Virus record (IMG/VR): IMGVR_UViG_3300021399_000002
Location: 64,001-128,000 of that record
Direction: 5' to 3' (one strand)
From: a virus
Lineage: Duplodnaviria; Caudoviricetes
DNA length: 64,000 nucleotides
The notes below the pieces were generated by a model. That model did no database searches, had not been told where the DNA came from, and saw nothing but the letters and a program-made list of their open reading frames with translations. Position numbers and translations under genes: made by a program. Of this stretch, positions 163 through 24,335 are shown piece by piece (within the stretch, counting starts at the first letter, position 1; each line of letters begins with the position of its first letter).

Positions 163-450
163 ATGCATATGAGAAATCGTGCAGAAAAGCGTCATAATGA
201 TTGGCGCAAAGCAATTCGTAAAAGAAAAATTGTTGAAGAAGTTTATCGGTGGCCCGAAGGTTGGTATGATAACCTTCATCAATATAGTAAAAATAAAATT
301 TTTTGTAGCTGTCCAATGTGCCGAAGAAAAACTAGTAAAATTAAAATGAAAGATAGTTATGGGCCTGGCGGGAAAAATTGGCCTATTGCAGATGAAAAAC
401 GAATTGAAGAAATGAATGATCAAATATTTGACAATGAAGAAGAAATCTGA
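163..450 (+). CDS. hypothetical phage protein (CxCxxC motif)
   Basis: GGAG RBS, ATG to TGA. Confidence 0.7.
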   Translation: MHMRNRAEKRHNDWRKAIRKRKIVEEVYRWPEGWYDNLHQYSKNKIFCSCPMCRRKTSKIKMKDSYGPGGKNWPIADEKRIEEMNDQIFDNEEEI

Positions 451-456
451 TATAAT
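428..456 (+). promoter_or_regulatory. sigmaA-type promoter for the tRNA/ncRNA cluster
   Basis: TTGACA-17-TATAAT with extended TG. Confidence 0.8.
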
Positions 457-1550: not shown

Positions 1551-1584
1551 AGTCCCTTAGCGTAATGGTAGCGCAAGGAGTTGA
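1551..1584 (+). pseudogene. 5' half of an interrupted tRNA-Gln
   Basis: AGTCCCT acceptor strand, D-arm GCGTAATGGTAGCGC, then GGAG-TTGA; pairs with 2070-2108. Confidence 0.75.
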
Positions 1585-1588
1585 TTTA

Positions 1589-1990
1589 ATGGAAACTAAA
1601 ATATGTACAAAATGTGGTATAGAAAAATCTATAGATGATTTTGCTTGGCGTGATAAAGCAAAAGGAACTAGGCGTTCTGAATGTAAAACTTGTCATAGTA
1701 ATTATATGAAAGAAAAATATAAAGAAAAACGACAAGCAATAGGAGAAATTAAATAGGATTTATCTTGTGCTAAATGTGGATATAATGAATATCCAACAGC
1801 TTTAGATTTTCATCATTTAGATCCAAGTCAAAAAGATACCACAGTCGCACGAATGATCGCAGCTAAATATAGTTTAGAGCGTGCCTTATCTGAAATTGAT
1901 AAATGTGTATGCTTATGTGCTAATTGCCATCGTGTATTTCATTTCCTTGAAAAAGAAGAAGGAATTACAATTGATGAGTTTCTAAAATAA
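1589..1990 (+). CDS. HNH homing endonuclease (one in-frame TAG=Gln)
   Basis: CxxC Zn finger; reading through TAG 1754 gives CAKCG..ALDFHH..LCANCHRVFH, ends TAA; 133 aa. Confidence 0.85.
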
Positions 1991-2064
1991 TGGGGTGTCG
2001 CCAAGTTGGTCGAAGGCACAGGACTTTGACTCCTGCATCGTTGGTTCGAATCCAACCACCCCAG
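1991..2064 (+). tRNA. tRNA-Gln(TTG)
   Basis: TGGGGTG/CACCCCA, CAGGA-CT-TTG-AC-TCCTG, GTTCGAATC. Confidence 0.92.
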
Positions 2065-2069
2065 CTTAA

Positions 2070-2108
2070 TTGACTCCACATGTGATGGTCCGATTCCATC
2101 AGGGACTG
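2070..2108 (+). pseudogene. 3' half of an interrupted tRNA-Gln
   Basis: TTGACTCC, GATGG-TCCGATT-CCATC T-arm, AGGGACT-G complementary to 1551-1557. Confidence 0.75.
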
Positions 2109-2546: not shown

Positions 2547-3137
2547 AAAAGATGCTTAATTCAGTAAATTAGAACCCAGTGAAGAAATGTTGACCGCATT
2601 GCTGGGGACATCTGAATGTCATCCAAAACCTTGATGGGATACTTTCAAGTATTGGGCGCAAAATCGGTAACGATTAGCGATAAGGGAGAAACTCCAAATG
2701 ACAAGGATGGGCGCTTTTATATCTAGTTGTAAATGCATGATTCCTTACGGCGGGATAATAGAAAGCTTAGTGAATAGCTAAGCCGAATCCTAATAAGGGT
2801 TTTAGTTGGTGACTGTAATCAAACTTAGGAAGAACCATAACTCGCTACTGCTGTTGAAAGTCAGAAATGACATATAAGTAAGGTTTACAGTAGTTATAGT
2901 TCAAATTGGCAGCAATTTAATATATAGAAGATTGAAAATTCTTTCAAATAAAATTGCTGAATGGTTGAATTAAACTTTGAGGTAGTCAATCCTCATCTAG
3001 CTTAGACCGAAAGGTAAGCATTAAAAGTGATCGGGTCGCGCCCGGCGCTCAGCGTAATGTTTCTAGATAGCATAATATACAATGGGGATATAAAAGTACG
3101 GAGAAAGACCGCGAATTTATTGAATTAAGCATCTTTT
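2547..3137 (+). ncRNA. large (~590 nt) structured ncRNA, ROOL/GOLLD-class candidate
   Basis: No ORF of 60 aa or more, own promoter, closed by a ~23-bp helix (2548-2570/3114-3136), many hairpins including GAAA-type loops. Confidence 0.65.
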
Positions 3138-5765: not shown

Positions 5766-6557
5766 ATGAATTTGAATATTTACACAACCGAAATGGCAAA
5801 ATCAATATGGGATAAAGCTTTTTTTATGGATAAAATTATAGGAGCTAAATGCGTAATTGATTTTGGATGTGCAAATGGCGCAATGACTCGTTATCTTTCT
5901 GACCTTCATCCAGATATAACATTTGTAGGATATGATATTTCACATGAATTAATTGATCAAGCCATAATTAATGCACGCTTGTGTCCAAATAATAATCTTT
6001 TATATTATTGTGGCATTTGGGATGGATTACAAGATATGGAAGATTATGTTATAAACCATTTTGCACCAGAAGAAATCTGTATTAATTTCTCTTCTGTTCT
6101 ACATGAAGTATATTCATCAACAGGTGGCATTGAAACAATTAAAGAATTAGTTGATAAACTTAATCCGCGTTATATTACAATTCGTGATATGTATTGTGAT
6201 GAACATTTGCCTTTTACCAAGCCTACATTTAGTGAAATTTGGGGACCACTTCCCTATCAATGCTGCGTTGAATTTGTGGATAAATTTGGTATGATTACAG
6301 ATTGGCGTAGTATGACGCATCTTTTAATGAAACTTCAATGGAAAGATAATGGCTGGGAAGAAGAATTAAAAGAAGATTATTATTCTTGGGATATTGATAA
6401 GTTTATTAAGGATATTAGTATTGGCGGTGAGTATATCCCTAGCTTTGATTGCCGCTACCAGCTTCCATATCTTGGAGAGAAATGGAAGAAGGAATATGGG
6501 TGGTATAATCCTGATATTCATACTCATGCTCAATTTATTCTTAGGAGGGATGATTAA
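5766..6557 (+). CDS. class I SAM-dependent methyltransferase
   Basis: VIDFGCANG motif I, VGYDIS, SSVLHE. Confidence 0.8.
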   Translation: MNLNIYTTEMAKSIWDKAFFMDKIIGAKCVIDFGCANGAMTRYLSDLHPDITFVGYDISHELIDQAIINARLCPNNNLLYYCGIWDGLQDMEDYVINHFAPEEICINFSSVLHEVYSSTGGIETIKELVDKLNPRYITIRDMYCDEHLPFTKPTFSEIWGPLPYQCCVEFVDKFGMITDWRSMTHLLMKLQWKDNGWEEELKEDYYSWDIDKFIKDISIGGEYIPSFDCRYQLPYLGEKWKKEYGWYNPDIHTHAQFILRRDD

Positions 6558-7024
6558 TGCCAATTTTGTATATTCTTTGCGGGCCGAGTGGCTGCGGAAA
6601 AACTACTTGGGCTAACGATTTTATTAAAGAGCATCATGATATTCGTTATGTATCTCGGGATGAAATTCGTTTTCAGTTGGTAAATCCTGATGAAAGTTAT
6701 TTTTCACGCGAAAAGGAAGTCTTTCGGCGCTTTGCCAATACTATTCGGCACACTCTTGTAGATGGCTTTGATTGTATTGCCGATGCCACTCATTTGAATG
6801 AATTTTCCCGTCGTAAGCTTACACAAGCAATTGACATGTATTTTAAAGACTATGAAATTGTTTATGTCAGTTTTAATGTAAATGTAGATACATGTATTGA
6901 ACATAATGCTAATCGTGAAGGCAGAGCTAATGTTCCTGAAACTGTAATTCGTAATATGTGCAGAGACTTTCGTACTCCATCTATTGATGAAGATGAGCGT
7001 GTAAAGGAGATTATTAATGTATAA
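6557..7024 (+). CDS. polynucleotide 5'-kinase-like P-loop protein (AAA_33, Pnkp kinase domain)
   Basis: GPSGCGKTT, SRDEIR, IADATHL, R..VPE.VI. Confidence 0.8.
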   Translation: MPILYILCGPSGCGKTTWANDFIKEHHDIRYVSRDEIRFQLVNPDESYFSREKEVFRRFANTIRHTLVDGFDCIADATHLNEFSRRKLTQAIDMYFKDYEIVYVSFNVNVDTCIEHNANREGRANVPETVIRNMCRDFRTPSIDEDERVKEIINV

Positions 7025-7217
7025 TATAGAAAAAATTAAAAACGCAGCTATTGCTGCAGATATTTATAATTACCTTAAAACAGCATATTATGGGACAACT
7101 CAAGAAGAAATTGATTTTAGAGTAAATTACGGTTCAAATGGCGTAGTGAATAAAGTACTAAATTATATTTATAATAAATATCTAAAAGAACCATTTAGTG
7201 AAACAGATAGGAAGTGA
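7017..7217 (+). CDS. hypothetical protein
   Basis: AAGGAG RBS, overlaps both neighbours. Confidence 0.6.
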   Translation: MYNIEKIKNAAIAADIYNYLKTAYYGTTQEEIDFRVNYGSNGVVNKVLNYIYNKYLKEPFSETDRK

Positions 7218-7852
7218 TTACAGTGAGCGAGATTTTCTTTACCAGCGACACCCACTTTGGGCACCAGCCTGAGTTCCTTTGGAAACCCAGAGGTTTTTCT
7301 TCTGTCGAAGAAATGGATGAAGCTATTATTGAAAATTGGAATAAAGTAGTTAAGCCCACAGATATTGTATACCATCTTGGAGATACGATGCTTAACGATA
7401 ATGTACATGGACTTGAATGTTTCAGGCGGCTAAATGGGCAGATTTTTCTTATTTATGGAAATCATGAAAGCGACGCTAGAAAGAACCTACTTTTCACTGA
7501 GCTTCCTGGTAAAATGCTCGGTGGCTGGTATGCCTGGCTTATCAAGTATGGTAAACTTTCTATCTACATGAGCCATTATCCTTCGATTACAAGTAATTAT
7601 GACCAGAAACATTTTAACCAGCATGTATTGAGCCTTCATGGACATACTCATCAGAGAACTAATTGGCTTGATCCGAAAAATCCTTTCCTCTATCATGTCG
7701 GTCTAGATTCTCATAATAATACTCCCGTCCATATTGATGAAGTAATCACAGATATTCGTCAGCGTTGGGATGAAATTGGCCGTCTACCAGTACCAGTTCA
7801 GCCACAAGACACCTATCCATATGGAGGGCTTATAAATGAAAATAGAGCGTGA
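7214..7852 (+). CDS. calcineurin-like metallophosphoesterase
   Basis: SDTHFGH, LGD, GNHE, HYP, HGHTH. Confidence 0.9.
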   Translation: MITVSEIFFTSDTHFGHQPEFLWKPRGFSSVEEMDEAIIENWNKVVKPTDIVYHLGDTMLNDNVHGLECFRRLNGQIFLIYGNHESDARKNLLFTELPGKMLGGWYAWLIKYGKLSIYMSHYPSITSNYDQKHFNQHVLSLHGHTHQRTNWLDPKNPFLYHVGLDSHNNTPVHIDEVITDIRQRWDEIGRLPVPVQPQDTYPYGGLINENRA

Positions 7853-8249
7853 ACTTGTTCCTGTTAAAAAATATGAAACCGTTTATGTCGCTCAAGATGG
7901 TACTCGCTTTTATAATAGAGCCAGCGCAATTAGGCATGATGCTATAACTTTCGCAGGTACTCGTTGTGTTAAACAAGATAGCATAAAATTGCCAGATAAT
8001 GAAACTTGGATGAGAGTTTTTAATATTACATGCCAAGAAGATTGGGATTATTTATACTATACAGAATGGGAACAAAATATTTTTTGTGATCAATATACTG
8101 GCCCTAGTTGGTATGGCTCTATTAAGCATGAAGGCATTGATGATGCTGATAGTTATGAAATTATAAAAATTGATTCTAACTATTTAAAGAAATATGAAGA
8201 TTATATTAAAGAACTTAAAGATTTGACTTTATCCAAATCTATGGTATAA
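7836..8249 (+). CDS. hypothetical protein
   Basis: GGAGG RBS. Confidence 0.7.
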   Translation: MKIERELVPVKKYETVYVAQDGTRFYNRASAIRHDAITFAGTRCVKQDSIKLPDNETWMRVFNITCQEDWDYLYYTEWEQNIFCDQYTGPSWYGSIKHEGIDDADSYEIIKIDSNYLKKYEDYIKELKDLTLSKSMV

Positions 8250-8250
8250 T
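8223..8250 (+). promoter_or_regulatory. sigmaA-type promoter (gives a ~120-nt leader)
   Basis: TTGACT-16-TATAAT with TG. Confidence 0.7.
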
Positions 8251-8375
8251 AATTATGTTAGAAGATAATAAGTGCTTAATTGGGTCACCATGCAAGCATT
8301 GTAATCCTTTAATATGCACATTTTATAAACACTCTTACAGTCGTGTCAACGACCAAGATGAAAAGGAGAATGAAA

Positions 8376-9884
8376 ATGAACGAACTGCTAAAGAATCTAA
8401 AGGAACATGAAAATGTAACTTATACTGCTAATGGCGCGAAAGCCTATCATTCTACCATGTCTAAGGTATATGACCTTTTCGCGCAAGGCGGAGCTATGCG
8501 TGGTGCATCCGATAGTGATTGCGTTGCTCTATTCGCGGCCGCTTATAAGGAAGATCCTTCCCTGGCCCTAAAATGCCTATTCTGGCTTCGTGATATTCGC
8601 GGCGGCCAAGGAGAACGGCGCTTTTTCCGTATTTGTCTGCAATGGCTGGCAATGAACCATAAAGATGAGGCATGTCATCTAATTCCGCTTGTATCTGAAT
8701 ATGGGCGTTATGATGACCTATTCGAGCTATTCAATACTCCATGTGAGTCTGAAATGCTTGGATATATTAAGTATGTAATTGATAAGAATGAAGATCATCT
8801 TGTATATAAATGGATGCCTTCTATCAATACATCTTCTAAGAATACACAAGCTCGTGGACGCAAGATTGCTTATGAATTTGGAATGACTGAACGCGAGTAT
8901 CGTAAGATGCTTTCTGAAGGGCGTAAAGCCTGTAATCTTGTTGAAACTCTAATGAGTCAAAATCGTTGGGATGAAATTGCTTTTAATAAGCTTCCTTCTC
9001 GCGCTGGTATTCTGTATTCAAAGGCATTCGCACACAGAGAAGAAACTAAAGAACGCTATGCTGCTTTTATGTCTTCTGATAAGACTAAGGTAAATGCCGG
9101 AACTCTATATCCTTATGATGTAGTAAAGAAAGCGCGCGAAGTTATGGGCAATTATTATGGTTGGTATAGCCCTAGGCCTAATGTGTCTCTAAATGATACT
9201 AATCGTCTCGCCGCAAACAAGTATTGGGACAATCTAACCGATTATTTCAATGGCGCAACGCTAAATGCACTATGTGTCTGTGATACAAGTAGCAGTATGC
9301 TAAGTGGTTATGGCAGTGTAGCTCCTATTGATGTAGCTATTTCTCTATCTCTATATACAGCCGAGCGGGCAAAAGGCCCATTCCATAATCACTTTATTAG
9401 CTTTAGCTCGCGGCCGCAGCTTATTGAAGTTGAAGGCGCAGATTTCTGCGATAAAGTATATCGTATTTATCGTCGGAATCTATGTGAAAATACGAATATT
9501 GAAGCTACTTTTGATCTAATTCTACAAACTGCTATTAATAATCATCTTTCTCAGGATGATCTACCAGAAACACTAATTGTAGTGAGTGATATGCAGTTTG
9601 ATTATGGGCGTACAAGTACACGCTATAGCGGAACTACGCTTATGGAAAAGATTGAAAGTAAGTGGAACTCTTATGGATACAAGATGCCAAAGCTTATTTA
9701 TTGGAATGTTAATGCGTCCGGCGATGGAAATATTCCAATGAAGGATAAAGATGGCATTACATTCGTGAGCGGCGCATCTCCTTCTATTTTTACTCAAATT
9801 ATGACTGGAAAAACAGGTGTTGATCTTATGTTTGAGGCACTCCTAAGTGAACGCTATAAGCCTGTATATTCCATTATTACATAA
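8376..9884 (+). CDS. DUF2828-family TROVE/Ro60-like protein with C-terminal vWA domain
   Basis: LRDIRGGQGERR, YGRYDDL, KWMP; vWA motifs CDTSSSM, VSDMQFD, IYWNV, VSG.SP. Confidence 0.8.
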   Translation: MNELLKNLKEHENVTYTANGAKAYHSTMSKVYDLFAQGGAMRGASDSDCVALFAAAYKEDPSLALKCLFWLRDIRGGQGERRFFRICLQWLAMNHKDEACHLIPLVSEYGRYDDLFELFNTPCESEMLGYIKYVIDKNEDHLVYKWMPSINTSSKNTQARGRKIAYEFGMTEREYRKMLSEGRKACNLVETLMSQNRWDEIAFNKLPSRAGILYSKAFAHREETKERYAAFMSSDKTKVNAGTLYPYDVVKKAREVMGNYYGWYSPRPNVSLNDTNRLAANKYWDNLTDYFNGATLNALCVCDTSSSMLSGYGSVAPIDVAISLSLYTAERAKGPFHNHFISFSSRPQLIEVEGADFCDKVYRIYRRNLCENTNIEATFDLILQTAINNHLSQDDLPETLIVVSDMQFDYGRTSTRYSGTTLMEKIESKWNSYGYKMPKLIYWNVNASGDGNIPMKDKDGITFVSGASPSIFTQIMTGKTGVDLMFEALLSERYKPVYSIIT

Positions 9885-9905
9885 CCTTTTCTTCCTCTTC
9901 ATAAT

Positions 9906-9951
9906 GTCAAGCAATTTATTGCTTGACTTTTTTCTTAATTTCATGTATAAT
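9906..9951 (+). promoter_or_regulatory. fused terminator and promoter
   Basis: GTCAAGCAAT/ATTGCTTGAC hairpin plus T-tract; its TTGACT is 17 bp from TATAAT. Confidence 0.75.
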
Positions 9952-9974
9952 TATTATAGTAAGGAGGTAAGAGT

Positions 9975-10733
9975 ATGGAAATTATGCAAGTAGTTAAAAT
10001 GCATCATGATTTTATTAAAGAATTAGGTTATGAAGTTGTTATGACCGTTTTGATCGGGTCACAAAATTATGCATTAGATAATGATAATAGTGATTATGAT
10101 ACATTTACTTTTATTCTTCCTTCTGAACGCGATTTATATCTTGGAAATGATCCAATAAGTGGAGAATTTGAAGTATACGATGGTAAATGTGTGTATAAAG
10201 ATATTCGGCTTGCTCTTAACTTACTTAAAAAAACTTCTCCTAATAGTCTTGAATGTTTTGTTAGTAAGTATCATTATTATGAACCAAAATATGCTAACAT
10301 TTTAACAAAGTATTTAGATAATGAGAATACATTAAATAAAATGCTTCATTGTAATTATGAGCATATGTTATATGCTATGGCCGGCATGGCACATCAACTT
10401 ACTAAGCGTAATATGTCCGCTGGTAAGCGTTATTCACATGCATTGCGGCTTTATAGTATGAAAGATAGTTTCTTAGATTTCGTTAAAACTGATCAATTAC
10501 TTAAACTATTACCACGCGATTATCAAGAAGCACTTCATGCAAAGCGTGATACTTTGGAATCACATGATGCATACTATAATAATGGATGTGTAAGTATCGC
10601 AAATATTTTAGATAGCTGTCGTGATGAATTTAAAAAGACTCTTATTCAGCACGCAATTGAAGTAGAAGGGTTTAAACTAATTGAAGAAATGCAGCAAGAA
10701 TTGATGCATTATTATATTAAATATATTTTATAA
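9975..10733 (+). CDS. Pol-beta-type nucleotidyltransferase (YcgL/RlaP-like)
   Basis: GSQNYALD...SDYD motif, K.SPN.LE. Confidence 0.75.
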   Translation: MEIMQVVKMHHDFIKELGYEVVMTVLIGSQNYALDNDNSDYDTFTFILPSERDLYLGNDPISGEFEVYDGKCVYKDIRLALNLLKKTSPNSLECFVSKYHYYEPKYANILTKYLDNENTLNKMLHCNYEHMLYAMAGMAHQLTKRNMSAGKRYSHALRLYSMKDSFLDFVKTDQLLKLLPRDYQEALHAKRDTLESHDAYYNNGCVSIANILDSCRDEFKKTLIQHAIEVEGFKLIEEMQQELMHYYIKYIL

Positions 10734-10744
10734 AAGGAGACATA

Positions 10745-11149
10745 ATGGATCTAAAAATTCACAATGGGATGCGCGTCCTATATAAACACAATGGACAATG
10801 GTGCGTTGGGAAACTTACAAATCAAATGCCGCCAAAACTTACTGAAAAGGGATTGTTTGTATTTGTTATTCCTAAAGATTATATGGATGCTGAAGAAGTA
10901 CCATATTTACATGATGTAGAAATTAATGATTTGTTTCTAGAAGCGATCCCAGTAGAAGATTGGATGGCGCAATATGGCTATCTAATGCCGAAAGAAGAAT
11001 ATATTAAATTCATTCAAAGCGATGAATTTGATAAAAACATTGAGCACGCATATGTATCAGATGGAGAATATTATTACTATAATGTCAATAAATACTCAGA
11101 ACAATGGTTAAATAAACAGCCATTTGACTATATTGTACGAGAAGAATAA
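10745..11149 (+). CDS. hypothetical protein
   Basis: AAGGAG RBS. Confidence 0.7.
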   Translation: MDLKIHNGMRVLYKHNGQWCVGKLTNQMPPKLTEKGLFVFVIPKDYMDAEEVPYLHDVEINDLFLEAIPVEDWMAQYGYLMPKEEYIKFIQSDEFDKNIEHAYVSDGEYYYYNVNKYSEQWLNKQPFDYIVREE

Positions 11150-11367
11150 TGTGGAATAAAAAAAGAATAGAAGAAAAAGATATCCCTCTAATTATTTCAC
11201 AAGGAATGGAAATGGTTAAACAGGGTAATGAATTAGTAGAACAAATTCGATGTATATATAAGCTTGAAAATGATAATATAATTTATATGATGTCACTTTT
11301 AGATTATATAGATAATCTTCCTCAAAATAAAATTATAGAATTTTGGCTTTGTCAAATGGTTAATTAA
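11149..11367 (+). CDS. hypothetical protein
   Basis: TAATG overlap. Confidence 0.6.
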   Translation: MWNKKRIEEKDIPLIISQGMEMVKQGNELVEQIRCIYKLENDNIIYMMSLLDYIDNLPQNKIIEFWLCQMVN

Positions 11368-11402
11368 TAACCATTTGACTTTTTTTTAATTTATGATATA
11401 AT
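11351..11402 (+). promoter_or_regulatory. fused terminator and promoter
   Basis: GTCAAATGGTTA/TAACCATTTGAC hairpin plus T8; TTGACT-16-TATAAT. Confidence 0.75.
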
Positions 11403-11420
11403 TTAATAAAAGGAGGGAAG

Positions 11421-12140
11421 ATGATGCCTACTGCAAAAACATATGAAAATTTTCCTTTGGATGGTGAACCTTTTAAAGAAAATGGTCGTATGTATGTTAA
11501 TATTACCACGCCCAAAGGAATTAAAAAAGTAAGATGGTATTCTGATGCTGAATATCAAAAAATGTATCCAGAAGTTACAGCAATTAATGATTTTAATGCT
11601 AATTATGCTTTTGGCTTTAGGGAAGAAGGATTTATTACTTTATATAAAGGCGATGAAGATGCAATTCGTAATTGGGCACAAGCAGAGTGGCCGCCGAAGG
11701 CTTGGTATAATACTTTATTTCATTTTTATACTCCAGGCTTTATGCCAATTACTAATCTTCCAAATACTATAACTCCTATTAAATTAACTTGGGATGAAGT
11801 TAAATTAAATGAAACACAAATGAAAGATGATAATGAAATAGAAAAATATGTTATGGCACGCATTACTGGTTTGGATCATTTTACAAGTGAGTTTCAGGGA
11901 GAAAAAGATACATGGTTGGAAAAAGAAGTTACTATTAGTAAAAATACAAAAAGTGAAAACTATTTTGGTGAAAAGCATACGCATATTATGCATGATGCCG
12001 AAGGTAATATATATGTATGGGAAACAGGCGCCAAAAATTTTGAAGTTGGTATGGTTATTAAATTAAAGATGAAAGTAAAAGCGCACAAAGAAATTAATGG
12101 AGAGAAATGTACTGTTGTTTGGTACTGTAAAGAAATATGA
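11421..12140 (+). CDS. hypothetical protein (possible C-terminal OB fold)
   Basis: AGGAGG RBS, 239 aa. Confidence 0.7.
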   Translation: MMPTAKTYENFPLDGEPFKENGRMYVNITTPKGIKKVRWYSDAEYQKMYPEVTAINDFNANYAFGFREEGFITLYKGDEDAIRNWAQAEWPPKAWYNTLFHFYTPGFMPITNLPNTITPIKLTWDEVKLNETQMKDDNEIEKYVMARITGLDHFTSEFQGEKDTWLEKEVTISKNTKSENYFGEKHTHIMHDAEGNIYVWETGAKNFEVGMVIKLKMKVKAHKEINGEKCTVVWYCKEI

Positions 12141-12346
12141 AACTATTAAATCAACGGTATTTTGGCCTGATTGCTCGATGTAATTTTGGATGCGGAGCAT
12201 TAATTGGATATGAGCCAAAAGATGTTTCAGATAATCAAACTATTACATGCCCACAATGCGGTGCGCGATTATGGGTACCATTTAATCCAACTTATGATGG
12301 CATAATTAAAGAAGAGGAGAAAAAGAAAGATGAAACTGTGGTTTGA
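12137..12346 (+). CDS. small Zn-ribbon protein
   Basis: CxxxC...CPQCG. Confidence 0.6.
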   Translation: MKLLNQRYFGLIARCNFGCGALIGYEPKDVSDNQTITCPQCGARLWVPFNPTYDGIIKEEEKKKDETVV

Positions 12347-12560
12347 AAATCGCTTTGGTGAACAACGAGAAATTGCTATTTGCGCTACTAATGAAGATAT
12401 ATATAAAGCTATTAATGCCTTTATTAATCGGGCTAATGCCGCAAAACCAAAAGGATCTACTCCATTTAAAAGTCATTATATTAGAACTTGGGAGCAAGAT
12501 GGAAAAACTTGGTATGATGTAGGAAGTCATGCAGAATTCTTTTTTACGACTAATAATTAA
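12330..12560 (+). CDS. hypothetical protein
   Basis: ORF with YDVGSH.EFF C-terminus. Confidence 0.7.
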   Translation: MKLWFENRFGEQREIAICATNEDIYKAINAFINRANAAKPKGSTPFKSHYIRTWEQDGKTWYDVGSHAEFFFTTNN

Positions 12561-12570
12561 AGAGGTTAAG

Positions 12571-12837
12571 ATGATTACTTCTGCTGCAGTTCGTATTTAT
12601 GATAAACGACAAAATAAAGAAATTATTTTACCTGTACATCGCCATTGTGATGTATTTTATATCCTAAAAGAACTTGGCTATTCTAAAAATGATTTTATAA
12701 GTAATCTAAATGACCAAGGTTTTCTTGATGAAAATGGAAATTTTTATAATAGGATTGATGCGAAACTTCACGCTCTTATGTGTAAACAAATTGAACATAC
12801 TGAATATGCAGAATTATATTCGGAGGATTTATATTAA
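12571..12837 (+). CDS. hypothetical phage protein
   Basis: GAGGT RBS; QGFL..G.F..R..A and LYSEDL pattern. Confidence 0.7.
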   Translation: MITSAAVRIYDKRQNKEIILPVHRHCDVFYILKELGYSKNDFISNLNDQGFLDENGNFYNRIDAKLHALMCKQIEHTEYAELYSEDLY

Positions 12838-13052
12838 TGAGTAATGAATTTAAAGATTATTTATATGATAAGATATGCGAAGTTGTCCTTGACTCTGGCG
12901 CGATGGATAAAATTGAACAAGTTTGCGGCATTTCATACTCTATTCGCAATTATGTTTACGGACGCAAGAATGGGCAGAAAGTGGCCCTAATGGTTTGGTT
13001 TGATAATGATACTGGCGAATGGCGAATTGAACATAGGGAGACGGATAAATGA
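12837..13052 (+). CDS. hypothetical protein
   Basis: GGAGG RBS, TAATG overlap. Confidence 0.65.
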   Translation: MSNEFKDYLYDKICEVVLDSGAMDKIEQVCGISYSIRNYVYGRKNGQKVALMVWFDNDTGEWRIEHRETDK

Positions 13053-13294
13053 AGAGAATTATCGCTATTATACTTTGTTTTATGTTATGTATTTTACTTG
13101 CAGGATGTACTCAAGTAAGTAAATCTGAAAATTCTACTATTCATAGTTATGCTATGATTATAATGCCCAATGGTTCAATTATTGAAGGCGAGTGTATCGC
13201 TTTTACTCGTATTTCTAGCGGTTATGCAATGGTAAAAATTGATGGAGTTAAATATTATACTAATGAATGGCGTATTGTGATTTGGGAAAAGTAA
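13049..13294 (+). CDS. lipoprotein
   Basis: Signal peptide with LLAGC lipobox. Confidence 0.75.
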   Translation: MKRIIAIILCFMLCILLAGCTQVSKSENSTIHSYAMIIMPNGSIIEGECIAFTRISSGYAMVKIDGVKYYTNEWRIVIWEK

Positions 13295-13297
13295 TAT

Positions 13298-13325
13298 TTG
13301 ACAATTCTTAAATTTATGATATAAT
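13298..13325 (+). promoter_or_regulatory. sigmaA-type promoter
   Basis: TTGACA-16-TATAAT with TG. Confidence 0.75.
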
Positions 13326-13358
13326 TATTACATAAGAAAAAGAGAAAGGATGATTTAA

Positions 13359-14612
13359 ATGCTGAATAAAAATCAAGAGCGTGAACTTGCCTATGTAGTT
13401 TTGATTGATGGCATTGAACCAATCCCCGGCTATGACCGTGTAGAACATGCAATTGTTGGCGGCTGGCGAGTAATCGTTCAGAAAGGTCAATTTAATGTTG
13501 GAGACCCTGCTATTTATTTTGAAATTGATTCTCGTGTTCCTTCTGATAAGGAATGTTTTGCTTTCCTTGAGAAGCGTAATTATAAAGTTAAGACCTTGAA
13601 GATGTGTAAAACTATTTCTCAAGGCTTGCTTATGCACGCAAGTGATTTTGGATGGACTATTGAAAATAAAATTACTCCGGACGCTTATGGAACTCGCGCA
13701 ATTGATACTAGCGTTGCAATTATTGATGATGAAGGTCAAATTCATCGCGCAACCGATGAATCCCGCTTCCTGACTAAGAAACTGGGAATAACTTATGCTG
13801 ATGATGAAGATAACCAGCGTAAAGCCGCACCTGTAGATAAATATAAGAAAATGGCTTCACGCCATCAGAAACTCTTTAAGAAGCCTTTCATTCGCTGGAT
13901 GATGCATCGTGAATGGGGTCGTAAGGTTATGTTCTTCTTCTTTGGAAAGAAAAAGGATAAGAAAAATGGATGGCCTTCTTGGGTATCTAAAACTGACGAA
14001 GAACGCGTGCAGAATATGCCTTGGATTCTTACCAATGATGAAAAGTGGATTGCTACTGAAAAGATTGATGGCACCTCAACTACCTTTACTATGAAGCGTA
14101 GCAAGTTTGGTAAGAAAGAACTATATGTATGCTCGCGTAATGTATGCTTTGATAGCATTGAGAAGCCTTGCTTCTACGATAGCAATGTATATTGGGAAAT
14201 GGCACAAAAGTATGATATTTTCAATGTACTTGCTCAAATGCTTAATGAGCATCCACAGGAAGAGTGGATTACTATTCAGGGCGAAACTTACGGTGCTGGC
14301 GTACAGCAGCGTGAATACTCTATTCCTGATCACGATTTTGCCGCTTTCAACCTAATCTTCTCAACTCAGGGAAGAGTTGGAACGAAGCAGATGATTGGTA
14401 CACTTACTCCTTGTGGAATTCCATGTGTTCCTGTGATTGAAGATGAAATGTATATCAATCAATTTGAAAATGTTGATGCTATTCTTGCATATGCTGAAGG
14501 TAATTCACAGCTGGACGGTCAACCACGCGAAGGCATTGTATTCCGTACTCTTGATGGCACCAAGTCTTTTAAGGCGGTGAGCAACAGCTTTTTGCTGAAA
14601 TATCATGGCTAA
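13359..14612 (+). CDS. ATP-dependent RNA ligase, DRB0094/Rnl5-like, with N-terminal OB domain
   Basis: I.PIPG.DR.E and YFEIDS N-domain; KTDEERVQN, EKIDGTS, QGE, REGIVF, FKAVSN. Confidence 0.85.
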   Translation: MLNKNQERELAYVVLIDGIEPIPGYDRVEHAIVGGWRVIVQKGQFNVGDPAIYFEIDSRVPSDKECFAFLEKRNYKVKTLKMCKTISQGLLMHASDFGWTIENKITPDAYGTRAIDTSVAIIDDEGQIHRATDESRFLTKKLGITYADDEDNQRKAAPVDKYKKMASRHQKLFKKPFIRWMMHREWGRKVMFFFFGKKKDKKNGWPSWVSKTDEERVQNMPWILTNDEKWIATEKIDGTSTTFTMKRSKFGKKELYVCSRNVCFDSIEKPCFYDSNVYWEMAQKYDIFNVLAQMLNEHPQEEWITIQGETYGAGVQQREYSIPDHDFAAFNLIFSTQGRVGTKQMIGTLTPCGIPCVPVIEDEMYINQFENVDAILAYAEGNSQLDGQPREGIVFRTLDGTKSFKAVSNSFLLKYHG

Positions 14613-14622
14613 GGAGTAAATA

Positions 14623-14889
14623 ATGAAAATTACTTTTGACAGTTTGCCAGATATTATTTGGGGTACGATGTATGGAGAGCATTGTACAGATAAAGATGCT
14701 ATTATTTTACCTATTAAGAAATCACAGCTTCATAAAACAGTCTCTGATGATAGCGTTATTTATATTTGGGGATGGCCTGGCCCAGATAGTAATATATATA
14801 ATTATAGTGACTATGGGGAGACTTGGGCCTTTACTCCAGAAGAATTATCTCCTGCTAGAAAATACGAGGATGTATATGGAAAAGGCTGA
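14623..14889 (+). CDS. hypothetical protein
   Basis: AAGGAG RBS; DYG.TWA.T.EEL. Confidence 0.7.
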   Translation: MKITFDSLPDIIWGTMYGEHCTDKDAIILPIKKSQLHKTVSDDSVIYIWGWPGPDSNIYNYSDYGETWAFTPEELSPARKYEDVYGKG

Positions 14890-15079
14890 AGTAATTAAAT
14901 ATCTCAAAATTGAACGCGAATGCATTAGCCGTGATTGTGATCGCAATTGCGGCCAATGCGACTTAGTTCAAGAACAAGAAACACTATTGGACGCATATGA
15001 TAGCGCAATTTCGCTATTAAGTATAAACCCAGAAGATAAAGATGATAATACTAAATGGAATAAGGAGTGGATTAAGTGA
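14876..15079 (+). CDS. small Cys-rich protein
   Basis: GAGG RBS; C..RDCDRNC..CDL. Confidence 0.6.
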   Translation: MEKAEVIKYLKIERECISRDCDRNCGQCDLVQEQETLLDAYDSAISLLSINPEDKDDNTKWNKEWIK

Positions 15080-15405
15080 TAGAAAAATTACTAGGAAAAA
15101 TATCGAATGTTAGGTTTGGTTTTATTCCAGATTATCCTTTTCTATTTGGATTAGATTTAACATTTAAATTATCTGATAACACCGTCATAGGTACAGGTGG
15201 AAAATATACTGTTAATATATCTGAGGCTTGCAAATGGTCAGAAGAAGAGAAAAATGCTGCATTAATTGATATGATAAATCAAATCATAAAAGTTATGGAA
15301 GATGCTAAGATAATTAATATAAGTGATTTAAAAAATAAACCTGTTGAAGTTACTATTGATCGGAATACTTTTAAAGATTTTAGAATTTTAATTGAAGTAC
15401 TATAA
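15076..15405 (+). CDS. hypothetical protein
   Basis: AAGGAG RBS, GTGA overlap. Confidence 0.7.
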   Translation: MIEKLLGKISNVRFGFIPDYPFLFGLDLTFKLSDNTVIGTGGKYTVNISEACKWSEEEKNAALIDMINQIIKVMEDAKIINISDLKNKPVEVTIDRNTFKDFRILIEVL

Positions 15406-15417
15406 GGAGTGGATAAA

Positions 15418-15558
15418 ATGAGCGAGCATACTAAATACCTAAGATAGTTATATCGTTGTAATCTACTAAAAGCACGAGGAGAAGAAGTAAATCGTGGTAT
15501 TATTGGAAAGCTAAATAGAAAAATTCGTAAATATGAGGAGAATGTAAAATATGTCTAA
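15418..15558 (+). CDS. small basic protein (one TAG=Gln)
   Basis: AAGGAG RBS; fills the gap only under code 15. Confidence 0.55.
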
Positions 15559-16489
15559 ATTAATTATTGGAATTATTATTTTAATTGGCGGTTTAATTCT
15601 ATCAAATATTTTAAAAAATGAGTATGGCGGACGACCATTCGCAATTATTGAACGATTAATTAGTTGTGTTTTAGGTATAGCTTTTATTTGTGCATCATGT
15701 ATTTCATATGTACCTACTGGCTATACAGGAATTGTAACTACATTTGGTAAAGTCCATAATGAGACACTTGATGCTGGTATTAATTTTCATGCCCCATGGG
15801 ATACTGTAATTAAGATGGATAATCGTGAACAGCGTGAATCTTTTACACTTGAAGCTTTTTCTAAAGATATTCAGCAAGTCGGGGTTCAAGGTAGTGTAAA
15901 CTATAATATTGATAAGGTTACCGCAATGAATCTTTATAGGGATGTTGGAGCAGAATATCCTACTATTTTAATTAAGCCTCGTATTCAAGAAGATGTAAAG
16001 ATTGTAATTGCTAAATATACTGCCGAAAATCTTATTGAAAATCGGCAGGCTATGTCTGATACTATTTTTGAGCTATTAAAGGCAGAACTCGCGCCAAAGG
16101 GTATTAATATGATTTCTTTGGCTATTGAAAATGTAGATTTTACAGATGTATTTGAAGCAGCGGTAGAAGCTAAACAGGTCGCTACTCAGGAGAAACAGCG
16201 TGCTCAAACTCTACAGGAACAGCAAACTATGGAAGAAGAGCAGAAAGCTGAGCGTGCTCGCATCGCCGCTCAAGCCGAAGCTGATGTAAAGAAAATCGAA
16301 GCTGATGCAGAAGCCTATGCTATTCGCGCAAAAGCAGAAGCAGAATCAGAAGCTAATACAAAATTAAATGCTTCTCTTACTTCTGAATTGATTGAATATA
16401 ATAAAATTCTCAAATGGACTGGTGAACTACCACGCTTCTTTGGTGGAGGAAATACGCTACCAATTCTAAATATGGCCGAGGCTGAATAA
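15551..16489 (+). CDS. SPFH/Band-7/prohibitin-family membrane protein
   Basis: Two N-terminal TM helices, VPTG..GIV..FGKV, SKDIQ, Ala/Glu coiled coil. Confidence 0.9.
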   Translation: MSKLIIGIIILIGGLILSNILKNEYGGRPFAIIERLISCVLGIAFICASCISYVPTGYTGIVTTFGKVHNETLDAGINFHAPWDTVIKMDNREQRESFTLEAFSKDIQQVGVQGSVNYNIDKVTAMNLYRDVGAEYPTILIKPRIQEDVKIVIAKYTAENLIENRQAMSDTIFELLKAELAPKGINMISLAIENVDFTDVFEAAVEAKQVATQEKQRAQTLQEQQTMEEEQKAERARIAAQAEADVKKIEADAEAYAIRAKAEAESEANTKLNASLTSELIEYNKILKWTGELPRFFGGGNTLPILNMAEAE

Positions 16490-16505
16490 GCCTCGGTTTT
16501 TTATT

Positions 16506-16533
16506 TTGACTTTTTTTTAATTTATGATATAAT
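16506..16533 (+). promoter_or_regulatory. sigmaA-type promoter
   Basis: TTGACT-16-TATAAT with TG. Confidence 0.7.
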
Positions 16534-16556
16534 TATAATAGAGGAGGGGAGAGATA

Positions 16557-17390
16557 ATGAAAGATATCCATTGTTTTTCAGATATTCATGGAGTATGGGC
16601 TTTATATAAAGCTATTATGGATTATTGTCAGAAACAAGACTCAGAAGGAACAATTTTATTCTTAGGTGACGCTATTGACCGTGGCCCCGATGGTTATAGG
16701 ATTATGAAAGAATTGCTTAATAATCCACGCGTAATATACTTAATGGGCAATCATGAAGATATGTTTACAAAAGCCGCACGACAAATTAAAGAAATGTTTA
16801 ATTTTGAAAATGCAGAACGAGCTAAAGTAAAAACTGTACTTTCCGCATGTAAAAATTTTGATTATAAATACGCAGCTATTCAAGATTCACTTTATAATGG
16901 CGGTATGCCCACTCTACTAGATTGGGTTATGGACGGAATGCCAATGGATCTAATTGAACGTATTGAAAAATTACCTCATACTTTTAGTTATGAAAATTTG
17001 GATTTTTGCCATAGTGGTGGATTATATACTACTTTTAAACGAGTGGCAGATTGTGAATATGATATGTCTCCTATAGATCAATATGATGCAGATGCAATTA
17101 TTTGGAATAGATCTGCTTTAGATATCGGATGGGCGCCGGATCGTACTGTAATTTTTGGTCACACTCCAGTACCATACTTACCGGATTTTGCTAATGTTAA
17201 AGTGGATAAAATCTGTCCAATAAAATATGCTCCAACTACTAATCCTGTATATACTGGAGATAAATTGGATATAGATACTGGTGCAGTATTTACTGGAATT
17301 GCTTATGTTTTGAATATTTTAACTATGAAAGCACAAGGGTTTGAATTGAAAGATAATCAGGTTGAAAAAATTGAAGTGATTCAATTTTAA
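16557..17390 (+). CDS. Ser/Thr protein phosphatase-like metallophosphoesterase
   Basis: SDIHG, GDAIDRG, GNHE, FGHTP, IDTGA. Confidence 0.9.
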   Translation: MKDIHCFSDIHGVWALYKAIMDYCQKQDSEGTILFLGDAIDRGPDGYRIMKELLNNPRVIYLMGNHEDMFTKAARQIKEMFNFENAERAKVKTVLSACKNFDYKYAAIQDSLYNGGMPTLLDWVMDGMPMDLIERIEKLPHTFSYENLDFCHSGGLYTTFKRVADCEYDMSPIDQYDADAIIWNRSALDIGWAPDRTVIFGHTPVPYLPDFANVKVDKICPIKYAPTTNPVYTGDKLDIDTGAVFTGIAYVLNILTMKAQGFELKDNQVEKIEVIQF

Positions 17391-17416
17391 TTGAAATACA
17401 TATTGATGAAGAGAAG

Positions 17417-17442
17417 GCCATCTATTTTAGATGGCTATTTTT
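17417..17442 (+). terminator. probable intrinsic terminator
   Basis: GCCATCTA/TAGATGGC then TATTTTT. Confidence 0.55.
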
Positions 17443-17457
17443 ATTGGAGGTGAGAAG

Positions 17458-20355
17458 ATGGGACAAAATTTATTTAAATCTATTGGTAATCTAGCTTATT
17501 ATCATGGATGGAGTCCAAATTATTTTTATTTTAATTCATTAACTGCAATTTCAAATATTAATACTGCATAGACTGGATTTGGTAGTCCCACCGCTGCAGC
17601 AGTCCGAGCAAAATAGGCCATACGAGATGCTGAATCTCACGCCAATTTCAATAATTTATCAGAAGATGATGCGACAACTCAAATGCTATCTCGTTTTTAG
17701 AATATTATTACTTTTTTACGAATGGCTTATAATATGGAATTATAGAATGAATAGGCTTTTTTTAAACGTAAATATACTGAATTTAAATCTCAATTTAGTT
17801 CAGATGCAGATAAAATTGCTCCATTAACAGAATTGTTAGATATGTTTAAAGACTATAAAGAAGATTCTTTTGATTATGCTAAATTTATTACTTTAATTAA
17901 TATTATTATGATGGGTTTAGATAAAACTAAAACAATTGCTTTTCATGAACAATAGCATATTAAATCTATTAATAGTCAAATTGAAGAAATGATTAAAAGT
18001 AGATAGCAGCAAGTTAGCGGTTTAGCAGATAAGTAGAAAGTAAGTGCAGAAAAAAAAGCTAAAATGATAGAAAACGCTACTCAAAAAGTAAAGAAAAATA
18101 TTACAGTTGAATACCTTAATAGTGCTAATTTAACTAGTGGTAAATGGCAAAATGGAAAGTTTAAATATCATTTATGGGGAGCAAAAAAATATTTTGGTAA
18201 TATAGAAAAAACTATAGATTAGGAAGTAGCTAAATGGGTCACAGATACTGTCAATATTGTTATTAATGATAAAAAAATGTTATAGGCATTAGCCACCTAT
18301 TTATAGACAGCTTATCCTCAAGCTACACAATTTTCTGAATTAGAAGCAGAAATCAAACGAATGATAATTACCTCTATTTAGGAATATGGACTAAGAAATT
18401 TAAGTAAAATATTGTCGGCCAATATTACAAAAAAAGCTACAAAAGAAATTGTAAAAGAGATAATTAATGATCCTAATATATTTGATACTATTCATAATTA
18501 TAGAATTGACGGTTTATATAATAATTATGGACAATTAGGAAAAGTATCTAAATTATTAGAAAATGCTACTACAATTAAAGATTTAGAAGACCCTAAAAAT
18601 AAAGGCGATGGATTATTCCAAGCAATTTCTGATATAATTGCTTGGTCAAAACAAAAATCTAAATAGGCAACTTTAACAGAAGAATAGACTTTATTATAGC
18701 AAGTATTAGAAGCCAGCGGGTCATGGGATAAAATTACTGAATTAGATAATATGATTCATAGACTTTTAACATTGGATGCTGAAATGCGTAAACGATAGAA
18801 CGCAGTAGACCAATAGTTTACTGATATAGAAACGGCTATTTTAGAAGAAGATGGTATATTTTTAGGAAAAGATGCAGAAGGCTCTTCTGTATATATAACT
18901 TTTGAAATTAAAGATGGACAAGTACAAGTTAAAGGAGATATAAAAGAACTAGTTAGTCGTACTAAAGCTTTTTAGGAACTAGGTATAAAACAACTAAATA
19001 CAAATAAAATTAATAGTATTACTGGCGTATTAAAACGTAAAGCTACAGCCAATTTACGTACTGCTTTAATTAATGGATTAAATGCCACAATGGAAGGAGC
19101 TTTACAAAGAAAGTTTGAAGATGAGGGAGTACTATTAAGACAAATTAAATAGGGGCTAGAAAATATGCATATTTCTATAGGTGGCCCAAAATTATCTGAG
19201 TTAGCAAGTGCATTAGAATTTCGGCGAGTGGGGAATGATTTAATTGTAGACTGGACCGGTGCAGCAAATGGAAAAAATGACGTTATTACTATTTCTGTAA
19301 ATACTGATAATGTATCTAAAAATTTAAATTTAGATATGAATACTATTATATCTGATTCTTTAGATCTTAATATAGAAGAATCATTAATAAATGCTCGTAA
19401 TAATTTTATTAGAGAATGGCATACTAGTGTTACTAAAGCTATTGGACAATTTGGTACAAGTACTGATAGATAGCGTTATAAAAAAATTGCCCAATAGTTT
19501 TTAACTATGTCAAGAAAACGATTAGAAAGAGATGAAAAAATCAATACTGCTTATGATGATTTAAAAAAAGCCTGGCTTAAATATAAAAAATATTTATAGG
19601 AAACTTTAAATGATGAAACGAAAATAGCCGAACTAGAGAAAAAATTTCTAGACGCATTAAGTGATTCTTTTTATGTTTCTACTACAGTAAAAACATATTA
19701 GACATATGTAAATGATATAGGATTTCACGGTGGTAGTCTAGGTGGTAATTTAGATGACTAGCTCGCGCGTATAGCTAGTATTTTTGCTATGGGAGGAATT
19801 TCAATTAAAGATGATTTAAAATGGTTACGTTCCGCTATTCTTAACTGTTCTCCTGTAAGTATTGTTAAAGAAAAAAATAAAAATTTAATTGAAGATTATT
19901 TAGGAAGCGTCGCTGCTTTAGCATTATTTGATGAAGGTGGTGCAGAAGCAAAAATTGTATCAGCAATTTTAAAGTAGACATAGAATAGCGTTAATAAAAT
20001 TGCTACTACACCAGATATTTTACATTTATATCGAACTAATACATTGTATGTCCCAGGTTCATATATTTTATAGTAGATATTATTACATCTTGAAAATGAC
20101 GTTATTCCTAATATACAAAAAATCCCTACGGTTATGAAACGTGGCGCAGGAGTTGTTATTATTAATAAAGCAAACGAGTCTATGATTGGTAATCGTCCAA
20201 TTCATACGACAGAGCACCCTTCAAAAAGTGTATGGACAATAACAGGCTAGACAGTAGCAGATAGTATTGATATTTAGATTTTATTTTTAGCTGGCTTACT
20301 AGATATTGTTAAAGGAATAAATGAATCTTTAGGAAATCTTGAATTCGCTGGATAA
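17458..20355 (+). CDS. 965-aa hypothetical protein with about 30 in-frame TAG=Gln codons
   Basis: GGAGG RBS; no TAA/TGA in frame for 965 codons; track fragments 18412, 19165 and 19789 share this frame. Confidence 0.9.
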
Positions 20356-23715: not shown

Positions 23716-24330
23716 ATGGATTTAGAAGAATTATTAGCAGATATTTGGGATAAAGTTCATACAACTGAATTAAGTCCGGCTATGTATTAGTATTATAATC
23801 AATTATTAAATCATAGGACAATTTTATTAAACGATGATATTACGGAAAATATTATAGAGTATGTATATTTGCCTCTTCGTGATTTTGAACAAGATGAGTC
23901 TAATGAACCTGTGACACTTATTCTAAATAGTAGCGGTGGTTCTGTATCAGATGGCTTTTTCCTTGCTCATTATATTTCTCATTACTCTAAACCATTAAAT
24001 ATTATTGTATTAGGATATGCTTGTTCTATGGCTACATTATTACTCGCCGCTGGCGGAAAAAATGAAAATATAATACGTAGTTGTTATCCATGTTCATATT
24101 GTCTGATTCATGATGGATATGTAGCTCTTGCTGCAGCAGAAGCAAAAACTGCTAATGATATTATGGCTTTTAATAATGAAGTAGATAAATAGATTTGTTA
24201 GTTTTTTTTAGATAATACTAATATTACTAAAGAGGAATATGATACTCATGCTCGTCATCAATGGTTTCTATTCGCAAAAGAAATGAAAGAGAAAAATTTA
24301 ATGGATACTATTATCGGGCAAGAGGAGTGA
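23716..24330 (+). CDS. ClpP-like serine protease (TAG=Gln)
   Basis: LNSSGGSV, ACSMA, LIHD; 204 aa under code 15. Confidence 0.8.
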
Positions 24331-24335
24331 TATTT

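Follow-up and report, generated by a model that had tools for sequence, protein, structure and literature searches.

Group I introns, with or without homing endonucleases, interrupt tRNA genes at the anticodon loop, as in cyanobacterial and plastid tRNA-Leu(UAA) and in tRNA-fMet. In phages, homing endonuclease genes can also stand free among tRNA genes. SegB of T4 cuts preferentially inside tRNA genes of relatives that lack the nuclease, with neighbouring tRNA genes being co-inherited, and T5 carries the free-standing homing endonucleases F-TflI/II/IV in its tRNA cluster (PMC2330249). Here we analyze a tRNA-Gln(UUG) gene at positions 1551–2108 of a 64,000-nucleotide (nt) stretch of DNA, hereafter the window, which represents bases 64001–128000 of the 182,655-bp rumen phage genome IMGVR_UViG_3300021399_000002; the relatives of this phage are also rumen phages. 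The anticodon loop of this gene, referred to as the outer gene, is occupied by a 493-nt cassette carrying an HNH nuclease gene and a second, complete tRNA-Gln(UUG). Judging from the sequence and its relatives, this is probably a free-standing homing-endonuclease cassette that entered the anticodon loop of the resident tRNA gene and brought a spare with it, an arrangement that an earlier, sequence-only reading of the locus had called break-and-replace.

The closest published analogue is T4 SegB, which likewise is encoded within a phage tRNA array. However, SegB is a GIY-YIG enzyme whose gene lies between other genes, whereas the window gene, as read from the sequence, specifies an HNH enzyme, sits inside the anticodon loop of its presumed target and is accompanied by a replacement of the same isotype. 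MobE of Aeromonas phage Aeh1 is reported to split nrdA, a case of 'genes in pieces' (PMC3045599), and fractured genes have been described as well (PMC2677866). These cases resemble the window in that a free-standing homing endonuclease resides, without an intron or intein, in a gene left in two pieces. The nrdA pieces reportedly still assemble a working protein, while the tRNA pieces of the window give no anticodon arm and the passenger copy would supply the function. The tRNA group I introns share with the cassette the class of insertion site, the anticodon loop, and a selfish logic. Unlike them, the cassette has no match to a ribozyme core, is filled by an open reading frame (ORF) and a tRNA, and adjoins an exon that has been rewritten so that splicing cannot restore it. 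Collaborative homing of a free-standing nuclease with an intron has been described for mobE and I-TevIII (PMC2790892), and one locus related to ours (L007), in which a nuclease gene lies just downstream of a split tRNA-Gln, resembles that case. Lastly, a recoded stop codon in a mobile endonuclease gene of a recoded gut phage has been proposed to delay the nuclease until late infection (Borges et al., bioRxiv 10.1101/2021.08.26.457843). The window gene similarly contains an in-frame recoded stop, although the published case concerns an intron-encoded enzyme in a TGA-recoded phage and the window a free-standing HNH enzyme in a TAG-recoded phage. In open-access literature text we found no nuclease-plus-spare-tRNA cassette nested in its own target tRNA. 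We regard the window element as a variant of intronless homing rather than as a system of a new kind.

All parts of the locus lie on the plus strand. The 5′ half of the outer gene, which is of phage type, (1551–1576) comprises the acceptor strand (1551–1557), the D arm (1560–1574) and nucleotides 26 and 27, and is identical at 26 of 26 positions to the 19 uninterrupted alleles described below and to all other alleles. It is followed by the cassette (1577–2069), which consists of a Shine-Dalgarno sequence (SD), the HNH gene, the spare tRNA and a 5-nt tail. The SD, AAGGAG (1575–1580), spans the junction of exon and cassette and lies 8 nt 5′ of the start codon of the HNH (His-Me finger) endonuclease gene (1589–1990; 133 codons, with TAG as codon 56 at 1754–1756), whose ORF begins at 1589 and not at 1580. 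The spare tRNA (1991–2064) is a tRNA-Gln(UUG) of the canonical bacterial type: ARAGORN identifies it as Gln(ttg), and it scores 63.5 bits with the Rfam tRNA model (gathering score 29) and has UUG in a 7-nt loop, a U1-A72 pair and G73. Together, the ORF and the tRNA account for 476 of the 493 nt. The tail (2065–2069) that joins the spare tRNA to the 3′ exon was delimited by aligning the window to intact alleles and to the related locus L002. The 3′ half (2070–2108) holds a remnant of the loop (2070–2074), a stem strand (2075–2079), the variable region (2080–2083), the T arm (2084–2100), the acceptor strand (2101–2107) and a discriminator G (2108), and matches the uninterrupted allele of L005 at 38 of 39 positions.

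This check of the sequence placed both halves, the HNH gene and the complete tRNA-Gln where the sequence-only reading had located them, and the outer acceptor stem is perfect as it had stated, with 7 of 7 pairs between 1551–1557 and 2101–2107. The TTGA that it had seen at both junctions is also present (1581–1584 and 2070–2073). We did not adopt TTGA as a target-site duplication, since the right copy is original loop sequence, the left copy is the spacer between SD and start codon, and the two copies pair with each other in a predicted helix. An assembly artefact was rejected, as independent assemblies show the same arrangement. In the 182.7-kb genome ARAGORN calls no tRNA-Gln other than the spare. 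No exact match to it was found in bacterial genomes, matches in viral contigs were confined to cassette carriers, and no host donor was identified; a DNA search of cultured phages gave generic tRNA-Gln similarity only.

When viral and metagenome contigs were scanned for exact patterns of each outer half, about 50 related loci emerged. In 19 of these (e.g. L004, L005, L034 and L035) nothing separates the two halves, which supplies the uninterrupted relatives that the sequence-only reading had said should be sought. The intact gene is a 71-nt tRNA-Gln, called Gln(ttg) by ARAGORN, with the loop CTTTGAC and an anticodon arm of the form A-(C/T)GGA / CTTTGAC / TCC(G/A)T. The outer gene is a real family, whose T stem exists across alleles in four covarying pairs of strands. 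Relatives without the nuclease carry the uninterrupted outer tRNA-Gln only and no copy of the inner type; the coexistence of both tRNAs in such phages had been named as evidence against break-and-replace. The locus displays presence/absence polymorphism at one exact site, with 19 empty sites set against three complete window-type sites (window, L002 and L077), the fragments L001 (20 nt), L071 (266 nt) and L075, and a 70% version in L083.

The cassette itself is nearly invariant. Over 1577–2069 the window is identical to L002 at 490 of 493 positions, to L077 at 493 of 493 and to the L071 fragment at 266 of 266, and the L001 fragment, which like L071 lies at a contig end, matches the window type over its 20 nt. 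In comparison with other carriers, the 300 nt upstream are only about 65% identical and the downstream sequence is unalignable; the gene there encodes PTH2 in L002 and is an unknown ORF in the window. Positions 1541–2077 contain only three differences from L002, and differences begin at 1540 on the left and at 2078 on the right. Additionally, the 3′ half is 85–90% identical to that of other carriers, with the first differences at 2078–2079, and the carriers hold three different 3′ exon alleles, each of which is also present in insert-free genes. Because the cassette is 99.4–100% identical in at least three phage backgrounds whose flanks are so diverged, these sequences indicate that it has spread laterally and recently. 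A near-invariant cassette in diverged backgrounds, with a crossover few bases from its edge, is the sequence pattern left by homing.

Older versions of the element also exist. The L075 fragment belongs to an older lineage (87% identical), and L083 is an older version at about 70% identity to the cassette. L083 retains an intact 5′ exon as far as the loop; next come a leader of about 100 nt and a cassette-borne AAGGAGG, the latter at the same distance from the HNH start as the SD of the window. The L083 HNH protein is 69% identical to that of the window, and the TAG of its gene falls at another codon. After this gene comes an odd tRNA-Gln-like gene that ends in CCA, and in the 3′ half the acceptor and T stems contain mismatches and the loop remnant has been replaced. 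A further locus, L047:1-811 (minus strand of the locus), has its tRNA-Gln loop broken by a leader in common with L083, followed by a different, larger HNH-type ORF within which the contig ends.

The sequence-only reading held that the two outer halves rejoin into one tRNA-Gln. They are indeed halves of one gene, but joining 1584 to 2070 gives no tRNA. The window 5′ exon lacks nucleotide 28 and loop nucleotides 32 and 33, the window-type register of the anticodon stem has 2–3 of 5 pairs, with 2 of 5 in the window itself, no anticodon loop can be rebuilt from the existing sequence, and no simple excision restores the gene. The acceptor, T and anticodon stems are all fully paired in 19 of 19 intact alleles and in 21 of 23 alleles that carry small inserts (see below), compared to none of the four nuclease-bearing alleles that are complete. 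The damage takes the form of a rewritten anticodon-stem strand in the window type and of decayed stems in L083. ARAGORN did not call the outer gene in intron mode or at relaxed thresholds. As the sequence-only reading had noted, no group I core is apparent: Rfam searches of the window, L047 and L083 with group I (Intron_gpI) and group II models gave no match at E≤1, and the insert, made up almost entirely of ORF and tRNA next to an exon lacking three nucleotides, is unlike a group I intron. It is also unlike an archaeal-type split gene or bulge-helix-bulge intron, having one continuous predicted 10-bp helix without two 3-nt bulges and exons that cannot rebuild the arm; the host is assumed to have no archaeal-type splicing endonuclease. 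We conclude from the sequence that the outer gene has ceased to yield a decoding tRNA, whose place the passenger tRNA would take.

We folded 1551–2108 (558 nt) by minimum free energy and partition function. In the predicted structure the outer acceptor stem forms, as does a 10-bp closing helix between 1577–1586, where it buries the SD, and 2068–2077, of which 2070–2077 is old anticodon-loop and stem sequence; pair probabilities are 0.61–1.0, with 8 of 10 pairs at 0.97 or above. Thus, the sequence-only reading's alternative that the halves pair around the insert is borne out as a structural prediction, but the resulting shell lacks an anticodon loop. The predicted helix may limit translation of the nuclease, or it may be a leftover of shared descent. 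The same reading had taken the SD to be the old stem strand put to new use. The SD does straddle the exon/cassette junction, but because in L083 the 5′ exon is retained in full and a separate AAGGAGG precedes the ORF, the SD may instead have come with the cassette.

The nuclease belongs to an HNH family. Its ORF contains CxxC...HH...CxxCH motifs and matches phrog_2255 of PHROGs (E = 8.8e-37), in an alignment that runs across the TAG codon, and phrog_3106 (E = 3.7e-23). Pfam gave no match at E 0.01, and a sequence search of the PDB returned weak zinc-finger or Rad50-hook noise only. The gene is single-copy in the genome. TAG is a sense codon in a subset of the genes of this phage, many others having no in-frame TAG; the 981-codon ORF 17410–20355 has 31 in-frame TAGs, which fall mostly at positions that are glutamine in homologues, a comparison that is partly circular as the homologues were possibly translated with code 15. 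Since the phage recodes TAG, the single TAG of the nuclease gene is normal coding and not decay. In L002, on the other hand, a zinc ligand in the second CxxC (the CxxCH motif) is changed from Cys to Tyr, which is the decay expected from a homing element once it is fixed.

Every full-length relative of the nuclease that we found lies in a phage tRNA array, and three adjoin tRNA-Gln(UUG). The L083 homologue (69%) is inside the same split tRNA-Gln gene. A 47% homologue, L008:2508-2917, lies 19 nt upstream of a tRNA-Gln(UUG), and in L007 the homologue (61%) follows, at a distance of about 100 nt downstream, a tRNA-Gln(UUG) into which a small insert has been placed. Others are placed between two tRNA-Lys genes (L009, 35%) and in an array with an intact tRNA-Gln (L035, 44%). 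The L008 homologue contains an in-frame TGA aligned with the family's conserved Trp; because TGA stands where other homologues have Trp, its sequence indicates that this phage reads TGA as Trp. Nuclease genes were observed to follow the local genetic code of each phage. Gp8 of the cultured Bacteroides phage crAss001 (L086, NC_049977.1:5164-5712) is 40% identical and lies between tRNA-Gly(GCC) and tRNA-Gly(UCC), with a 14-nt overlap with the second, and is a possible experimental model for the link of this nuclease family to tRNA genes.

Taken together, intact relatives, a near-identical cassette in diverged genomes, an outer gene that cannot be restored and the lack of a ribozyme core support break-and-replace as the sequence-only reading had proposed it. 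An HNH family, presence or absence at one site, a conserved element within diverged flanks and no Rfam intron match are also the features of a free-standing homing cassette. During co-infection, the HNH enzyme would cut or nick insert-free alleles at or near the anticodon-loop sequence, and repair would then copy the cassette, with the conserved tRNA halves serving as short homology arms; the right-hand crossover lies at most 8 nt from the cassette edge. The passenger tRNA would compensate for the destroyed gene so that carriers pay no cost. Synthesis of the nuclease is probably kept low and late, because the gene has no promoter of its own, is inside a tRNA precursor, has its SD in the predicted helix with the 3′ exon and contains TAG at codon 56, which would need the phage suppressor tRNA. 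Three observations weigh against this proposal. The spare and resident tRNAs have an identical 13-nt anticodon stem-loop core, so the spare either has no immunity or owes it to flanking bases. The arms of homology are very short, at 26–36 nt on the left and 39 nt on the right. Finally, all outer stems except the anticodon stem are still perfect in the window type, which fits its recency and would also fit a retained function of the outer shell.

The same anticodon loop is occupied by a different kind of insert in 23 further related loci (L003:5400-5484, L007:2299-2363, L036, L044–L046, L048, L049, L051, L054, L055, L057, L063, L064, L066, L067, L069, L072, L076, L079, L080, L082 and L084). These mini-inserts in tRNA-Gln(UUG) are 43–86 nt long and represent 17 distinct sequences in eight length classes. 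Each follows CTT or CTTT without a gap, and its first strand forms 7/7 pairs (6/7 in one case) with the strand before the last 2–4 nt. A T arm adjoins this acceptor-type stem, with 5/5 pairs in 13 of the 17 sequences and 2–4 of 5 in the other four, and the 3′ end is N73 followed by C or T, or N73 followed by CCA. The exon resumes with TGAC or GAC, such that exact removal of the insert restores a 7-nt loop. All 17 distinct sequences share this combination of acceptor strand, T arm, N73 end and restorable loop, whereas the window insert, which begins with an SD and an ORF and ends with a 5-nt tail, does not. Compensatory changes occur in the acceptor and T stems within classes, and the tRNA-model scores are 33.8 bits for the L007 insert and 23.3 bits for the L003 type. 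The exons of mini-insert alleles are kept as well as those of intact genes, and two alleles (L045 and L072) look recombinant, with a crossover inside the insert.

In the complete genomes G003 and G005 the split tRNA-Gln is the only tRNA-Gln. All mini-insert phages encode an RNA ligase, that of G005 being of the T4 Rnl1 type, and RtcB was not found in any of the five related phage records searched. The mini-inserts may thus, on their sequence features, be excised at the RNA level by tRNA end-processing enzymes and the exons then ligated. A cut after N74 or after CCA has no obvious enzyme. It is possible, though we hold it only tentatively, that the anticodon loop is a contested site, with the mini-inserts as a new class of tRNA intron in bacterial viruses that also shield the gene from the nuclease and the window cassette as a non-splicing competitor. 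RNase P would cut at the 5′ end of the mini-insert and a 3′ endonuclease after N74 or CCA, phage healing and sealing enzymes would reseal the halves, and at the DNA level the mini-insert would protect the gene by breaking the target of the nuclease.

Retention of the outer halves could also have a function of its own. They might be kept as a tRNA-shaped shell rather than a decoder, acting as a scaffold on which the nuclease mRNA and the spare tRNA are processed and regulated; the acceptor, D and T arms with the 10-bp helix would give RNase P and the 3′-processing enzymes their entry points and hold the SD closed. We judge this unlikely, and it is compatible with mobility by homing. The acceptor stem and the helix form with high probability in the predicted fold, the window, L002 and L077 have intact outer stems apart from the anticodon stem, the anticodon helix of L083 likewise continues across the junction, and for SegB and the T5 nucleases it has been suggested that tRNA processing of the transcripts limits expression (PMC2330249). 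However, intact stems are expected anyway in insertions as recent as these, and the older L083 copy has lost acceptor and T-stem pairs. The T-stem differences among carriers match those of insert-free alleles and are therefore inherited rather than compensatory. The halves are complementary by descent, moreover, so that the fold is partly built in.

Quite unlikely, in our assessment, is that the cassette moves only by ordinary homologous recombination between conserved tRNA sequences, with the HNH protein inert or engaged in another job, for example nicking or cutting DNA in general. In its favour, tRNA arrays are mosaics prone to recombination, the cassette is present in L002 despite the altered zinc ligand, and in a genome whose tRNA-Gln is intact a 44–47% paralogue occurs at another place in the array. 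Nevertheless, four diverged versions of the nuclease (100%, 69%, 61% and 47%) are physically linked to tRNA-Gln(UUG) genes, the high-identity block ends a few nucleotides right of the insertion point, as it would after a local break, and presence/absence polymorphism at one exact site is a homing signature. That the 493 nt are removed at the RNA level and the halves joined by the phage RNA ligase into a second functional tRNA-Gln is very improbable: although an RNA ligase, a P-loop kinase, phosphoesterases and RlaP are among the products of the phage genome, and precise removal of the small tRNA-shaped inserts at this site in relatives would restore the loop, no cut-and-join of the window exons, with their missing nucleotides, gives a 5-bp stem and a 7-nt loop, the insert begins with an SD and ORF instead of an acceptor strand, Rfam found no group I or II core, and with a working outer gene there would be no need for a complete spare tRNA.

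The genome that carries the cassette has a 127-bp overlap of its ends and a GC content of 35%. ARAGORN finds 24 tRNA genes in the whole 182.7-kb sequence, all in one array, of which one has the anticodon CUA (G000:C1:55157-55242; 86 nt, U1-A72, G73). In-frame TAGs were also observed in 24243–25574 (six) and in 61198–62232 (nine). A sigma-70-type consensus promoter at 428–456 (plus strand) matches at 12 of 12 positions with a TG extension. Because this is the only 12/12 match upstream, and the next strong consensus match (11/12) is at 2485–2513, the predicted promoter at 428–456 is the probable start of the tRNA/HNH transcription unit. Just downstream of the locus, a full-length ROOL RNA (Rfam RF03087; 265.9 bits) occupies 2551–3130, preceded by the near-consensus promoter at 2485–2513. 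The gene after the tRNA-Gln encodes a PTH2 peptidyl-tRNA hydrolase in relatives, assigned by Pfam in L002 (5125–5565) and by eye in L034 and L083, and the same position in the window holds an unrelated 112-codon ORF (2137–2475) with no family match.

Other tRNA-like sequences are found upstream. Two weak elements with Tyr-type GUA loops lie at 737–807 (26 bits) and 854–925 (32.8 bits), the latter called by ARAGORN with a 6-nt anticodon loop and undetermined isotype. Directly upstream of the outer tRNA-Gln, at 1399–1547, is a tRNA shell that has an acceptor stem, a T arm and a D arm of Leu type, and in which the anticodon region is replaced by a hypervariable middle of 55–150 nt; its T loop has a 4-nt duplication in the window genome. 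The acceptor and T stems of this element covary among L001, L002, L003, L005, L034 and L036, and L004 and L035 lack the element. Possibly it is a Y-RNA-like RNA that partners the DUF2828 protein encoded in an RNA healing and sealing gene set at 5766–17390. This set comprises a methyltransferase (5766–6557), a P-loop kinase AAA_33 (6557–7024), a phosphoesterase (7214–7852), the DUF2828/DUF7788 protein (8343–9884), an RlaP nucleotidyltransferase (9975–10733), an RNA ligase with a PHA02142 OB domain (13359–14612), an SPFH protein (15551–16489) and a metallophosphoesterase (16557–17390).

Break-and-replace homing would give homing endonucleases a third route, besides introns and inteins, into a functional gene without cost, namely to break the gene and bring a substitute. 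Conserved tRNA halves could provide portable arms of homology for exchange between phages with hardly any other DNA that can be aligned, and the TAG inside the nuclease gene would tie the control of a selfish element to stop-codon recoding. The mini-insert family that competes for the same loop in relatives is a more unusual matter than the nuclease cassette, and its splicing at the RNA level, if true, would constitute a new class of intron in viruses that infect bacteria. The allelic series of intact genes, eight mini-insert length classes and two nuclease cassette lineages offers a practical test bed at one small locus. Lastly, cassettes of this kind would drive turnover of the tRNA repertoire in large phages.

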